Part shown: positions 26,469-50,718 of the stretch, piece by piece
Layout of the letters: every line of letters begins with the position of its first letter
Position numbering within the stretch: the first letter of the stretch is position 1
Sequence record: OP688485
From: Escherichia phage EP_H11
Length of the DNA: 64,000 nt
Direction: 5' to 3' (one strand)
Program-made: the position numbers and the translations under genes
Notes under the pieces: generated by a model
Database searches by the model: none
What the model saw: the letters and a program-made list of their open reading frames with translations, nothing else
Told to the model about the DNA's origin: nothing

Positions 26469-26831
26469 ATGACTTCTGCCGATTGCGTAGCTATGGCCGT
26501 CTACTATGAGGCCAGGGGAGAGTCGGAACGTGGGCAGTTAGCTGTAGCCCACGTGGTACTCAACCGAGCGAAGAAATACGGTATAAGCCCATGTAAGGTA
26601 GTTAAAAACAGGAATACCTTTCCGTGGTACCGTCACATCTCTTACCAGAATATGAAAGATCCTAAATCTAAGGCATCTGCTATTCATATTGCGGCAAGAG
26701 TTAAATACAGTGAAGATCCTACATTCGGGGCTACTCACTTTCATAATGTAAAGGTTAGGCCTAACTGGAAGGGCTATAGAATGACAGCCAGAATAGGCGA
26801 CCACAAGTTCTATAAGAAGGTAAAGAAATGA
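26469..26831 (+). CDS. SleB-like cell wall hydrolase (Hydrolase_2 family)
   Basis: AMAVYYEARGESERGQLAVAHVVLNR matches the SleB-type signature. Confidence 0.6.
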   Translation: MTSADCVAMAVYYEARGESERGQLAVAHVVLNRAKKYGISPCKVVKNRNTFPWYRHISYQNMKDPKSKASAIHIAARVKYSEDPTFGATHFHNVKVRPNWKGYRMTARIGDHKFYKKVKK

Positions 26832-27382
26832 CTTTGAGTAATATGGAAATAGACAACCTAATCGGTATGTTGGGAGGTACAGCAGTACTCGTCCTAACTA
26901 TCCGTCCTATCGACCAGGATGAGAGCTATGATGTAATAGTCCGTGAGTCTAGTTTCGAATTCGAGCAGGCTCTTCGTCAGGCTATGCACGACTTAGTTAT
27001 TACTAATAATGGTGTTAAGCATCGTCTGCTTAAAGTATCGATAGGTATTAAATCGTCCAATGTATTCGCTAATCCGGATATCGTAAAGACCTGGGAAGTC
27101 TGCGATAATCCACACACTCCTAAGATGAACGAGGCCATAGAACGAGACCAGCAATATCAAGAGCTTGTTTATCAGGCAGTAGAGCTGGTGTTTATGCTTA
27201 GCAACTGTCATACTCTTTATGAAGCGTATGAAGGTAAGGCCGAAATGACTCAAGAGTCTGTTCGGGAGGCCGTTCGTGTATCTCTCTTCAACATCTTATC
27301 TGGTAAGTCTGAGACTAAGATGGATGTGGAGGTAGAGAAGGTAATTAAACCATTCCGGGAATTATTTGCACGGAGTATCTGA
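26828..27382 (+). CDS. hypothetical protein
   Basis: 184 aa ORF. Confidence 0.45.
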   Translation: MTLSNMEIDNLIGMLGGTAVLVLTIRPIDQDESYDVIVRESSFEFEQALRQAMHDLVITNNGVKHRLLKVSIGIKSSNVFANPDIVKTWEVCDNPHTPKMNEAIERDQQYQELVYQAVELVFMLSNCHTLYEAYEGKAEMTQESVREAVRVSLFNILSGKSETKMDVEVEKVIKPFRELFARSI

Positions 27383-47245: not shown

Positions 47246-47881
47246 CTATTTAATAAACCAGGATCTTACATGATCCTCATCCGGCAGATACGCTGGGGTA
47301 AAGGACAGTTGCACCTTAGCCCATAACGGCTGACCAGTAGAGCGAGCTATTTCCTTGCTATACTGAGTCGACACGTTAACTAGTATAAGGCTAGTTGCCC
47401 TGAACCACTGGCCGATCTGCAGAGTCCATGTGCCTGTTATGGCGGTATCCGGATTAAAATTACCAGTCGCCTTGGTTACAGAGTACCCATTAGGAGCTCC
47501 GAACATAAGTCCGTTCTTGGTAGTGTAAGTCACCCCAGCCAGGAACTCTTTAACTATGTCCAAAGGTCTGATGGATGGATTGTATGAGATGATTGTCAGA
47601 GTCACAGGGAATACCGGTTTAGTACTCCCGCGCCACTGAGCGATGGTTTCACGAATATTTCGTATAACCATCTGATCCATACCCACGGTATTAGCTACCG
47701 CATTAGCACCACGAGTTAGGGTGCCAGCCATCAGGTTTTCACCAGATTCAAACAGAGACGAAATATCGAATCCGAAATCCGTCTCTATCAGACCTACAGT
47801 ACGGGATTTGTTACCAGGATGGACTAAGACAATTCTAGCATCTGGATTCGCGTATAGCTTCTCGATGTCTAATACTGCCAT
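47246..47881 (-). CDS. putative tail protein (DNA circularisation / post-tape-measure protein)
   Basis: 211 aa directly downstream of tape measure gene. Confidence 0.4.
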   Translation of the reverse strand: MAVLDIEKLYANPDARIVLVHPGNKSRTVGLIETDFGFDISSLFESGENLMAGTLTRGANAVANTVGMDQMVIRNIRETIAQWRGSTKPVFPVTLTIISYNPSIRPLDIVKEFLAGVTYTTKNGLMFGAPNGYSVTKATGNFNPDTAITGTWTLQIGQWFRATSLILVNVSTQYSKEIARSTGQPLWAKVQLSFTPAYLPDEDHVRSWFIK

Positions 47882-50718
47882 TATGAGAACACCATCTTGT
47901 TGAAAAACGCCAGACCATAGTCATCAATAGTGTCACTCTTATCCGTAACCACTGATGGTACGTTAGGAGTTGTGGTAGCAGGATCCTGATTCCTGGTGGA
48001 ACCAGCAGCTATAGCAGCCAATTGATTATTCTGATCTTGACGCTGTTTATTAACATCGTCTGTAGGGGTAGGTGCTTTAGGGACCTCGAGAGGTACGTTC
48101 TGAGCAACCTGGGTAGCTCCTGACTTAGATGCCTCAGCATCAGAGCCATTCTTCATCCATTCTGCAGTGTATGCAGCACGATCTGCTAACCCATTATACC
48201 CACCATTGACTGCCTTAGTTGCCACTTCAACAGTAGCTCCTTTCTTCTCCAGCTGCGGCTGCACACGATCTTTCCAGTATGCAACAGCCAGCTTATTGGC
48301 GATTTCAGGATCTTCGGCCATCTCCGGATTGTTTTCGAGATCTATACCCAGCATCTTACCGTATTTCCGGTAATTAGCCCTGCCAGTCAACTGTATCCAG
48401 CCGCGACCCTTATAACGAACCCCGTCCCCAGGATTCACGTTACCCAGGTCTTTACGACCCTCGTACGCTTTACCGGAAGCAAGTTCTTTATTATAACGGA
48501 AGTTACCAGATTCATGCTGAACCTGACCCATGAATAGAGCCAGCTCTTTATCGTCGATTCCCTGCTGCTTAGCATATGCTGCTAGATTATTCTTACGCTC
48601 CGTCTGCTCCTTAGAGCTGGGGAGGTATCGAGAAGCATTCTGCATAGCCGACTGTAGGATACTGCCACCAGCATCAACAGCGCTATCATAACCATTGGAG
48701 ATTATTCCACCAACAGTTCTGGCTCCGTTAACTATGGAAGTACCTACTCCAATAATCCCATTGGATACAGCAACAGCTCCTTTCTTAAGTCCTTTAAAGA
48801 AGTCACCGACTACTGGTAAGTCTGATAGCCAGTCAAACAAGCCACCAATACCCTCTCCTATAGACTTCATAGGATCATTTATAAACTCTGTAACCAAGTT
48901 AGATAATTCACTGATTTCTCCGGTTATAGACTTAGTTACCGAGTCATAACTATCGGAGAACCACTTAGATGTGTCTGAGACTGTCCTGGAAAGCCAATCA
49001 GACGCATTCTTATACATCCCTGAGAATGATGCCGTCAGGTTATTTGAAATATTAACCGCGCCTTCGTATGTCTTCTGTACAGTATCTACAGCAGACTTAG
49101 CGACATTCACCACATCCTCTGGGGATGCTAGCCCGAGAGTTAATCCAGAAGCTATTGAAGCTGCTGATGAGCCAGCTTTAGACCAGTTATCATCACTGCC
49201 GAATAACTCTTTAGCCTTATCTCCATCCCATCCTGAGATAGCATCGTAAATCCCCATCCCAGCAGTAACTGCTAACCCGATTCCTGGGATGAACTTAGCT
49301 CCTTTAAGACCAGATCTTAGAAGAGCACCACCTCCGCGAGCAGCACCTCTCGCAAGTCCTCCGGTGGCAGCTGCGTCGACTGCTCTGCCTGCCATCCTGC
49401 CGAGTCTACCAAACTTACTGAGTCCGCGGCCGAGACGAGTCCTACCTCTTCTTCCTCGACCTCTTCTACCTCTGCGGCCACGCTCATCGCCGCCGAGAAG
49501 ATCATCAAAGATAGAATCAGCAGCACTCTGCTTCTGTTCGTTAGCGAAAGGATCAATTTCTTCATGGTTAGCTCTTCCATTAGCTCTGGTTGCTGATACC
49601 AACTGTTCGTCGATATCCACCAAAGTAGACTGACCATTAATTAGCTGAGTCTGCTTACGGGACATTTCGTCCTGACCAGACTTAGTCTGATTAATTAACT
49701 CTCTAATGCTATTGTTAATCTCATCAAGCTTCTGACTCTGATCCTCTTCTGGAGTAGGCCCGAGGCTAGGTCTGGGACTTACCGTAGCATCTGGAGTAAT
49801 TTCTACCTTAGTTTCTTTACCACCAACTCTAGCAGATACCTCAGACTTATTCTCCGATTTAAGAAGATCTCGAGATATGGCCTTTAATTCTTCGTCAGTG
49901 GTATCCGGTCCGTCGTCTTTCCTTTTACGGAACATAGACGATATGGCACCGTCCAGCTTATCAGATATACCGAATACGTTATCCAAGTCCCCTAAACCTA
50001 GGGCACCTAGACCGGATGAGAGTGCTTCCCTGCGGACAGAACCTACGGAAAACTGCGATGGGGTGTTAAGGAACGAATCCCTTAAATTACGGCCAGTTTG
50101 ACGTATGTTAAATCTGTCAAGAGTATCCCTCTCATCCTTACTCCTGTTCGTTAAGTTAGCAATCTTTACCGTGTCAGAATACTTAATCTTTACGCTATGA
50201 TTAGCTAACTCTGCTCTAGCTTGCTCAATGATACGGTTATTTTTCCGCATATTGATAGTACTGAGTGAGGAATTGGATACATTAAGCACCCGAAGTAACC
50301 CACTCAGTTCCCTCATGGCTGTCATACGGACGCCACGAGTAAGTCTAGAGTCATTTAATATTGACTGATAGGTGTCGAGTAAAGATTCTGCAGCGATGGC
50401 CTTTTGATCCTCGGCAGTGGCATACATATCCGCCACCTGACCGACTTTATCTCTTAGGGAGATCAGCTGCTCAGCTTCCTGGGTAGAGAGCTTAGCTCTA
50501 CTGTAGAACTTACCCATCAGTGTATTCAGGGTCTTAACTTCTTCAGAGCTAAGACCTACATCTACATCGTTGCTGGAGAGTATCTTAACCGTAGAGCGAA
50601 TCCCGATAAGATCTTCTTCCAATTTAGACCTGGCATGTTCGTAATCAGAGGCATCCTTAATCGGATCGGTAGCTTCTGTACGAGCAATCCCAGATATGCC
50701 TCTAACTATGCTAACCAT
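47881..50718 (-). CDS. tail tape measure protein with lysozyme-like (GH19-like) domain
   Basis: 945 aa; coiled-coil N-terminal half, RGRRGRRGRGRRGR repeat, Gly-rich hydrophobic segments, C-terminal YKGRGWIQLTGRANYRKYG lysozyme-like motif. Confidence 0.7.
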   Translation of the reverse strand: MVSIVRGISGIARTEATDPIKDASDYEHARSKLEEDLIGIRSTVKILSSNDVDVGLSSEEVKTLNTLMGKFYSRAKLSTQEAEQLISLRDKVGQVADMYATAEDQKAIAAESLLDTYQSILNDSRLTRGVRMTAMRELSGLLRVLNVSNSSLSTINMRKNNRIIEQARAELANHSVKIKYSDTVKIANLTNRSKDERDTLDRFNIRQTGRNLRDSFLNTPSQFSVGSVRREALSSGLGALGLGDLDNVFGISDKLDGAISSMFRKRKDDGPDTTDEELKAISRDLLKSENKSEVSARVGGKETKVEITPDATVSPRPSLGPTPEEDQSQKLDEINNSIRELINQTKSGQDEMSRKQTQLINGQSTLVDIDEQLVSATRANGRANHEEIDPFANEQKQSAADSIFDDLLGGDERGRRGRRGRGRRGRTRLGRGLSKFGRLGRMAGRAVDAAATGGLARGAARGGGALLRSGLKGAKFIPGIGLAVTAGMGIYDAISGWDGDKAKELFGSDDNWSKAGSSAASIASGLTLGLASPEDVVNVAKSAVDTVQKTYEGAVNISNNLTASFSGMYKNASDWLSRTVSDTSKWFSDSYDSVTKSITGEISELSNLVTEFINDPMKSIGEGIGGLFDWLSDLPVVGDFFKGLKKGAVAVSNGIIGVGTSIVNGARTVGGIISNGYDSAVDAGGSILQSAMQNASRYLPSSKEQTERKNNLAAYAKQQGIDDKELALFMGQVQHESGNFRYNKELASGKAYEGRKDLGNVNPGDGVRYKGRGWIQLTGRANYRKYGKMLGIDLENNPEMAEDPEIANKLAVAYWKDRVQPQLEKKGATVEVATKAVNGGYNGLADRAAYTAEWMKNGSDAEASKSGATQVAQNVPLEVPKAPTPTDDVNKQRQDQNNQLAAIAAGSTRNQDPATTTPNVPSVVTDKSDTIDDYGLAFFNKMVFS

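Follow-up and report, generated by a model that had tools for sequence, protein, structure and literature searches.

Three predicted peptidoglycan-cleaving domains in Escherichia phage EP_H11: a GH19 module in a tail protein, a GH19 endolysin and a SleB-type protein without an export signal

The locus and its relatives

The stretch of DNA considered here, referred to as the window, comprises 64,000 nucleotides of Escherichia phage EP_H11 (sequence record OP688485), a contractile-tailed phage of E. coli (myovirus). Three of its genes encode domains predicted to cleave peptidoglycan: a small protein of the SleB type, a standalone endolysin of glycoside hydrolase family 19 (GH19), and a protein of 945 amino acids (aa) at the tape-measure position of the tail module, which carries a second GH19 domain towards its C-terminus. 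Their positions, and those of the features discussed with them, are collected in Table 1.

Genes on the plus strand occupy positions 1-27624 and include those for a Pol-beta-like protein, an NAD-dependent ligase, a dUTPase and a dCTP-deaminase-like protein; those on the minus strand, from 27678 onward, serve lysis, the tail fibres, the baseplate, the tail and the head. The blocks are convergent and meet near 27.65 kb. The closest relative is Escherichia phage vB_EcoM_IME392 (MH719082, 116 kb), with 92-94% DNA identity over both test segments; it is the sole near relative among 50,697 phage records.

Table 1. Positions in the window of the three predicted wall-cutting proteins and of associated features (TM, transmembrane; pI, isoelectric point).
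Feature	Position	Strand	Basis
SleB-type catalytic domain alone (PF07486 Hydrolase_2), 120 aa, pI 10.1	26469-26831	plus	profile matches
110-aa protein, C-terminal TM segment aa 82-109	27678-28010	minus	translation and hydropathy
Candidate o-spanin, 69 aa, lipoprotein signal, lipobox LVS/C, sequence MKKLKTTLLVLGSLSLVSCNS	28021-28230	minus	inferred only
i-Spanin-like candidate, 76 aa, N-terminal TM segment	28079-28309	minus	translation and hydropathy
Candidate holin, 140 aa, one strong TM segment aa 12-38	28306-28728	minus	translation and hydropathy; position and topology
Standalone GH19 endolysin (muramidase type), 215 aa	28743-29390	minus	PF00182, phrog_181, 9eoi
gpV-type OB-fold spike/hub, 219 aa	45078-45737	minus	PF04717, 9e-12
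945-aa protein at tape-measure position	47881-50718	minus	gene order of contractile tail module
C-terminal 90-aa tail of the 945-aa protein, ending in DDYGLAFFNKMVFS	47884-48153	minus	homologue comparison
GH19 module of the 945-aa protein, aa 702-855	48154-48615	minus	PF00182, phrog_181, PDB matches
Gly/Ala-rich, mildly hydrophobic segment, aa 471-700, upstream of GH19 module	48619-49308	minus	composition
Arg/Gly-rich stretch, aa 410-470 (GRRGRRGRGRRGRTRLGRG...)	49309-49491	minus	composition
Tail sheath	52660-54459	minus	phrog_23 1.8e-62, PF04984, PF17482

Three wall-cutting domains

An earlier reading of this DNA, made from its letters and open reading frames (ORFs) and referred to below as the original prediction, had proposed three peptidoglycan hydrolase domains of two folds. 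All three lie where it placed them, score above the curated Pfam cut-offs and keep their catalytic residues; the assignments themselves (SleB-type, GH19 endolysin, and GH19 within the protein at the tape-measure position) agree with matches in Pfam, PHROG and the PDB, whose E-values are far beyond chance. The arrangement is less unusual than was implied, because SleB-like genes far from the holin have already been reported in T5-like and rV5-like phages. Multiple lysins are ordinary for large lytic phages, and the window holds the usual toolkit and not a new system. Phage CB7, for example, has three predicted peptidoglycan-degrading enzymes, one of them SleB-like (PMC7344957).

The members of the GH19 endolysin subfamily are defined by E49, E58 and T130 in the numbering of the SPN1S endolysin (PMC8547705), and both GH19 domains of the window have the equivalent residues. 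A recent duplication can be dismissed as the origin of the pair, given that they are 36% identical over 106 residues and that their N-terminal lobes fail to align; judged by sequence, the two represent old, separate lineages.

No fourth hydrolase was found in the ORFs covered by the scan, namely the seven other large late-block ORFs (29601-43354), ten tail and baseplate ORFs (43332-54459) and 20 of the larger plus-strand ORFs. The plus-strand block does contain a fourth wall-directed protein, of 188 aa (17389-17955), which lacks a signal peptide and carries at its N-terminus a peptidoglycan-binding LysM domain (PF01476, E 1.4e-11, aa 5-50). Profile searches gave no match and no recognizable catalytic part in its remaining ~135 residues, and its only homologue in the phage collection is that of IME392.

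The protein at the tape-measure position

On the minus strand, the genes run in the order sheath, tube, a 158-aa protein, a 276-aa T4_baseplate-like protein, the 945-aa protein, a PmgG-like protein, proteins of 125 and 374 aa, a gpV-type spike, gp25 and J, which we take to be the order of a contractile tail module of the P2/Mu type. The 945-aa protein comes after the tube or assembly genes and before those of the baseplate hub and spike, and four other phages or contigs (L002, L004, L011 and L013) share this gene order, all of which bears out the position that the original prediction gave to it. Homologues range widely in length, from 697 to 1288 aa. That of Acinetobacter phage Ab1-TPeters has 697 aa and is labelled ‘endolysin’; that of Vibrio phage Va2 has 1064 aa and is labelled ‘glycoside hydrolase’; a third, of 873 aa, from the metagenomic contig L013, is 40% identical throughout. 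In the IME392 record, the orthologue is labelled just ‘putative glycoside hydrolase’.

Outside the GH19 module, the sole PHROG match of the 945-aa protein is phrog_26249, of unknown function, and the protein has no TM-like hydrophobic segment. The Arg/Gly-rich stretch is kept in the Va2 homologue and in P0163, a metagenomic homologue described below, and is absent from that of Ab1-TPeters; DNA or membrane contact is a possible function. The Gly/Ala-rich segment that follows is partly conserved in all three, and a part for it in membrane insertion or channel formation is speculative. The hydrophobic motif at the C-terminal end is conserved in homologues whatever enzyme module is present. A lysin on the spike was considered and rejected: the gpV-type protein has only 219 aa and its OB domain, with no lysozyme domain, and therefore the tail-tip lysin is not on the spike.

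The GH19 module matches PF00182 over aa 702-821 (37.9 bits against a cut-off of 25.5) and phrog_181 at 2.5e-39, together with solved phage GH19 lysins at E-values down to 3.7e-21. The motif cited in the original prediction (YKGRGWIQLTGRANY) corresponds to aa 769-783. Conserved residues are H735, E736, E745, Q776, T778, N838 and R847, of which E736, E745 and T778 are the equivalents of the three that define the subfamily. When five close homologues are compared, no part of the protein is as well conserved as the GH19 segment (91%, against 69-79% elsewhere), and the ratio of non-synonymous to synonymous substitution rates (dN/dS) for the whole gene, measured against IME392, is 0.08.

Further evidence comes from homologues in which another enzyme stands in the place of GH19. 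P0163 (L011 8001-11867) is 27% identical to the ~590 N-terminal residues of the 945-aa protein (E 7e-38) and weakly similar to it in the C-terminal end motif; where the window protein has GH19, it has a C-terminal muramidase domain like that of VgrG3 of the type VI secretion system (PF21277, E 3e-63). In the Ab1-TPeters homologue (L002 5224-7317), the same place is taken by a domain of the phrog_873/phrog_7182 ‘tail injection transglycosylase’ type. On this comparison, predicted wall-cutting modules have been swapped on a homologous tail scaffold. The recruitment of different modules to one slot, together with the strong constraint on the GH19 module, supports the digestion of peptidoglycan during genome delivery. 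The idea that the tail GH19 digests the wall at entry, put forward in the original prediction, is therefore plausible, with the catalytic residues intact in what is the most conserved segment of the protein and with other lysin-type modules in its homologues; as a predicted role, it is well supported by comparison.

Searched by indexed words, the complete 945-aa protein yielded at least five proteins (four close relatives and P0163); the counts of long GH19 proteins below come from an exhaustive search of 1.84 billion representative proteins, which gave 13,328 hits. Amongst the 149 best GH19-containing matches, 62 are at least 600 aa long with a C-proximal GH19 domain. In 64 long proteins with GH19 in the C-terminal half, the domain is followed by a tail with a median of 116 residues, and the catalytic motif HE[ST]...E is kept in all but two of them (62/64). 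The sampled contexts include T4-like marine contigs and cyanophage S-B68, in which long GH19 proteins come after gp26/gp51-like genes and before gp5-OB genes; Erwinia jumbo phage PhiEaH1 has a version of 2222 aa. The architecture is common and poorly labelled: database records call such proteins ‘glycoside hydrolase’, ‘endolysin’ or ‘tail fiber’, none of the 60 records among the matches listed (of 207 at E <= 1e-20) labels the matched gene ‘tape measure’, and no paper in the literature searched links GH19 (or chitinase) with a tape measure. It should be noted that one metagenomic T4-like contig (L014 2994-6434) has, immediately after the gene for a 979-aa GH19 tail protein, one for a 1146-aa Phage_lysozyme (GH24) protein and, two genes further on, one for a gp5-OB protein; this would place two different lysins in one tail tip.

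The concept is not a new one. Tape measure proteins that carry a lysin domain form a textbook category, and such domains occur in tape-measure or tail-internal proteins such as phiKZ gp181, T5 Pb2 and the Tmp of mycobacteriophage TM4. Tape measure proteins with a lytic transglycosylase have also been described in enterococcal phages (PMC10194240). All of these resemble the window protein in having the lysin module near the C-terminal end of a long protein that fills the tail tube, in the local digestion of the wall presumed to occur at genome delivery, and in the exchange of the module between related phages. They differ in the module, which in the window is of the GH19 muramidase type and not SLT, Rpf or M23.

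The endolysin and its neighbours

The standalone endolysin matches PF00182 (32.9 bits against a cut-off of 25.5) and the phrog_181 endolysin family (1.8e-59), and can be aligned over its whole length with the solved muramidase PaGH19Lys (9eoi; E 5e-32), a GH19 enzyme, as well as aligning with other phage GH19 lysins. Its active-site residues, taken from the 9eoi alignment and from conserved motifs, are E52, E61 and T131, corresponding to E49, E58 and T130 of SPN1S. PaGH19Lys, the closest solved relative, has muramidase chemistry (PMC12329726). The likeness to PaGH19Lys and to the SPN1S endolysin (4ok7) extends to a single domain of ~210 aa with the same Glu pair and Thr, the absence of a signal sequence, and a place adjoining holin and spanin candidates. 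By the 9eoi alignment, two residues of that enzyme appear to differ in the window protein, with Phe51 in place of His50 and His129 in place of Gln127. The dN/dS of the endolysin gene is 0.03-0.09.

Directly downstream lies the candidate holin, whose sole profile matches are to phrog_9685 and phrog_402, both of unknown function. Beyond it, the ORF of the i-spanin-like candidate overlaps that of the 69-aa lipoprotein in another frame, and the two resemble an overlapped spanin pair. The 110-aa protein with a C-terminal TM segment is encoded by the final gene of the late, lysis-side block and is conserved in L008, a more distant relative. The small ORFs of the cassette have no match to holin or spanin profiles in Pfam or PHROG; judged by topology, the arrangement is that of a canonical holin–endolysin–spanin cassette, with a soluble endolysin beside small membrane proteins and a lipoprotein with a lipobox.

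The SleB-type protein

The 120-aa protein matches PF07486 across the entire model (positions 1-100 of 100; E 2.5e-20, 73.4 bits against a cut-off of 27) and phrog_938 ‘endolysin’ at 7e-23, and it has the fold of the SleB catalytic domain. Its E14, in the sequence YYEARGE, aligns with the Glu of the GE(S/A)RGE motif in SleB structures (4f55 and 4fet) and is invariant in an alignment of nine sequences. From SleB structural work we take this Glu to be the catalytic residue, which makes E14 the putative one in the phage protein. The protein begins directly with the catalytic domain; because an in-frame stop lies two codons upstream, no N-terminal extension or signal peptide is possible, and there is no signal peptide, TM segment or other hydrophobic segment within it. 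Identification as a true SleB was rejected: the equivalog model TIGR02869 gives 33.8 bits against a cut-off of 236.5, and only over model positions 90-201, without the N-terminal half. The SleB of the Bacillus spore cortex (4fet, 4f55) differs in having a signal peptide and an N-terminal peptidoglycan-binding domain, both missing here. The host of the phage has no spore cortex. The original prediction had named the protein a hydrolase. The SleB domain family is classed among the lytic transglycosylases (PMC6403190), so that this name is probably wrong as to chemistry and the protein is, on family membership, probably a lytic transglycosylase.

As had been noted originally, the gene lies outside the lysis cassette; it is on the strand opposite to the cassette and has the dUTPase and dCTP-deaminase genes as neighbours (24040-25404 on the plus strand, just upstream). 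The position is kept in L008, where the layout on one strand is dUTPase, DCD, another gene (x), Hydrolase_2 and two further genes (x, x), converging on the lysis cassette. The orthologue in L008 is 82% identical in aa sequence, and is better conserved than the products of the flanking genes (61% and 43%). The dN/dS was measured against L008, the comparison with IME392 being uninformative at one nucleotide difference, and is 0.11, similar to the 0.09 of the endolysin. By these sequence measures, the gene is not decaying. In IME392, the orthologue (105380-105739) is absent from the annotated table of coding sequences; that record has merely 85 features over 116 kb.

Homologues were detected by tblastn in 1,119 phage records, including T5-like, rV5-like (PVP-SE1 gp243), PAK_P1-like and jumbo phages. 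Three lineages (T5-like, rV5-like and PAK_P1-like) were inspected; in each, the SleB-like gene is found among early or DNA-metabolism genes and not beside a holin, a distance already remarked upon in T5-like and rV5-like phages (PMC11180984, PMC7344957). These homologues, which include CB7_83 of the rV5-like group, share the PF07486 domain with the window protein at 30-42% identity. They differ in their N-termini: the T5-like and rV5-like versions start with a Sec signal peptide, and the PAK_P1 homologue, which is annotated as an endolysin, has an N-terminal TM anchor. The bare domain is found in the window protein and its closest relative, P0002; two further relatives, P0003 and P0005, also have no N-terminal extension, and P0003 has a C-terminal one. 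In the rV5-like Escherichia phage CarlMeissner (L006 2899-5378), the SleB-like gene, which encodes a signal peptide, overlaps the start of rIIA by four bases, which suggests co-expression with membrane-integrity (lysis-inhibition) genes.

Proposed roles and alternative explanations

We consider it reasonably probable that the three proteins are glycan-strand-cleaving modules used at different points of infection, namely at entry, at exit and in an auxiliary capacity. At entry, contraction of the sheath would be followed by ejection of the tail protein's GH19 module through the tube; the module would then cleave MurNAc-GlcNAc (N-acetylmuramic acid to N-acetylglucosamine) bonds locally, allowing the tube or a DNA conduit to cross the peptidoglycan. 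At exit, the standalone endolysin would accumulate in the cytoplasm until released by the neighbouring candidate holin, with the spanin candidates completing the disruption of the outer membrane. The SleB-type domain, made from the nucleotide-metabolism block, has no export signal and so would reach the wall only once the holin fires, to act as a second lysin. A soluble auxiliary lysin that needs the holin is, on this sequence, a plausible description and the best one that we can offer; it follows from the missing export signal and from the failure to detect homologues by mass spectrometry in the virions of CB7 or PA5oct. There is a parallel in the lysozyme of T4 gene e, a soluble lysin that is encoded away from the T4 holin gene and awaits holin firing in the cytoplasm; it differs in belonging to GH24 and in being the main lysin of T4, not a second one.

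Several points weigh against this account. No tape-measure profile in Pfam or NCBIfam matches the 945-aa protein, and its identity as a tape measure thus rests on synteny and composition. An AlphaFold2 (AF2) model of its aa 640-945, built from a five-sequence alignment of close sequences, had a pLDDT (predicted local distance difference test) of 41 and was not used. Bacillus SleB needs muramic delta-lactam, which is lacking in E. coli peptidoglycan, and so the activity of the SleB-like enzyme on normal peptidoglycan is an assumption. All three of the SleB-like homologues checked carry an export signal or a membrane anchor, from which it follows that the usual role of the family may not be holin-dependent lysis. 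A scan for sigma-70 promoters and terminators across 22-30 kb did no better than on shuffled sequence, and so gives no guide to the timing of expression. Finally, we infer the enzymatic activity of all three modules from sequence, and likewise the packaging of the tail protein in the virion, the timing of expression and the dependence on the holin.

The homologues with export signals lead to the alternative that we take most seriously for the SleB-like protein, although we think it rather doubtful: that it is not a lysis enzyme at all. It would instead have a role in mid-infection on the envelope or on muropeptides, derived from that of the exported T5-like and rV5-like versions and modified by loss of the signal peptide, or would bind rather than cleave. 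Consistent with this are the early or DNA-metabolism neighbours of the gene in the other three lineages, the overlap with rIIA in rV5-like phages, the purifying selection on the gene, and the toxicity of an exported homologue when expressed in E. coli (PMC7344957). Without export, however, the protein cannot reach peptidoglycan before the membrane is breached; its catalytic Glu and other invariant residues are kept, and the adjacent genes include none for a partner membrane protein. The original prediction had suggested a different role, namely that the SleB-like protein acts at entry; packaged in the virion, it would then work with the tail GH19. A small, basic protein (pI 10.1) has a sequence compatible with packaging, but we regard this as extremely unlikely. 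The gene is in the nucleotide-metabolism block, on the strand opposite to the structural genes and outside their module; homologues went undetected in the CB7 and PA5oct virion proteomes; the three homologues checked have a Sec signal or membrane anchor, that is, they are made and exported inside infected cells; and the tail protein already supplies a lysin for entry.

As for the 945-aa protein, it might not be a length-determining tape measure but some other internal or baseplate-hub protein with a lysin, like T4 gp5. The want of a matching profile speaks for this, the upstream 276-aa gene resembles the T4 hub factors gp26 and gp51, and the T4-like marine contigs have their long GH19 proteins among hub genes. 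We nevertheless judge this distinctly improbable, since a separate gpV-type spike is present, no other long protein is encoded between the tube gene and the baseplate genes, and homologues vary in length as widely as is expected of tape measures; its N-terminal ~470 residues, the Arg/Gly-rich stretch included, have no TM-like hydrophobic segment. The predicted function at entry would be the same under either name. A last alternative, that at least one of the domains has lost catalysis and persists as a remnant for structure or binding, is suggested by the endolysin, in which the two changed positions noted above appear in the list of active-site positions of 9eoi (PMC12329726). It is very unlikely in our view, given that each GH19 domain retains its two catalytic Glu residues and the Thr that positions water, that the SleB-like protein retains its catalytic Glu, and that all three genes are under strong purifying selection. 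Entry by the tail module, exit by the endolysin and an auxiliary SleB-type lysin remain our preferred assignment.

Wider implications

The finding of three domains leaves current models unchanged. What is most noteworthy is the interchangeable lysin slot in the tape-measure family and the signal-less form of the SleB-type enzyme, and each of these invites a broader, more tentative reading. SleB-type enzymes whose genes lie with early or DNA-metabolism genes in large lytic phages of Gram-negative hosts (T5-like, rV5-like and PAK_P1-like phages and the clade of the window) may constitute an uncharacterized class of envelope-remodelling lytic transglycosylases that act during infection and not at lysis; were this so, the signal-less form would represent a functional shift, for example to holin-gated action or to cytoplasmic action directed at muropeptides. 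The tail protein may, for its part, represent a family of myovirus tape-measure scaffolds that is widespread, has hardly been annotated and offers a slot for interchangeable GH19, VgrG3-like or transglycosylase-like modules. The two readings are linked, and we think them unlikely.

There are consequences of a more practical kind. Because public records label long GH19 tail proteins ‘glycoside hydrolase’, ‘endolysin’ or ‘tail fiber’, these can be mistaken for lysis enzymes in lysin-mining studies. An exchangeable module on a conserved scaffold amounts to a natural experiment on what a contractile tail needs in order to cross the wall, and the compact GH19 domain of the tail, which presumably acts from outside the cytoplasmic membrane, may interest those engaged in enzybiotic work. 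The difference between the exported SleB-type proteins of the three lineages checked and the bare domain found here provides a genetic handle on the recurrent question why a second lysin, encoded at a distance from the holin, is present in large lytic phages.

Other features of the window

IME392 is among the phages with YerA41-like DNA polymerases that have been examined for thymidine hypermodification (PMC12686479), and therefore the DNA of the window phage may be modified. Elsewhere in the plus-strand block, the product of 54-560 scores just above the cut-off for the anti-CBASS protein Acb1 (PF23474; 27.5 bits, cut-off 27), a borderline match, and also matches phrog_755 ‘RNA ligase’; from these similarities, it could be a counter-defence gene of the 2H-phosphoesterase type. 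A PinA-like Lon protease inhibitor domain is encoded at 8582-9001 (plus strand; PF10465, 3.6e-9) and a NADAR domain protein at 21010-21669 (plus strand; PF08719, 7e-27), both of them candidates for host-takeover or counter-defence functions. The minus-strand region 29601-43354 encodes a set of receptor-binding proteins, comprising a DUF4815 protein (1014 aa), a BW3TFN baseplate tail-fibre network component, a protein with a tailspike N-domain of the TSP1/gp66 type (780 aa) and a beta-helix protein (824 aa), which suggest a branched multi-tailspike apparatus; the IME392 record labels one neighbour ‘colanic acid-degrading’.

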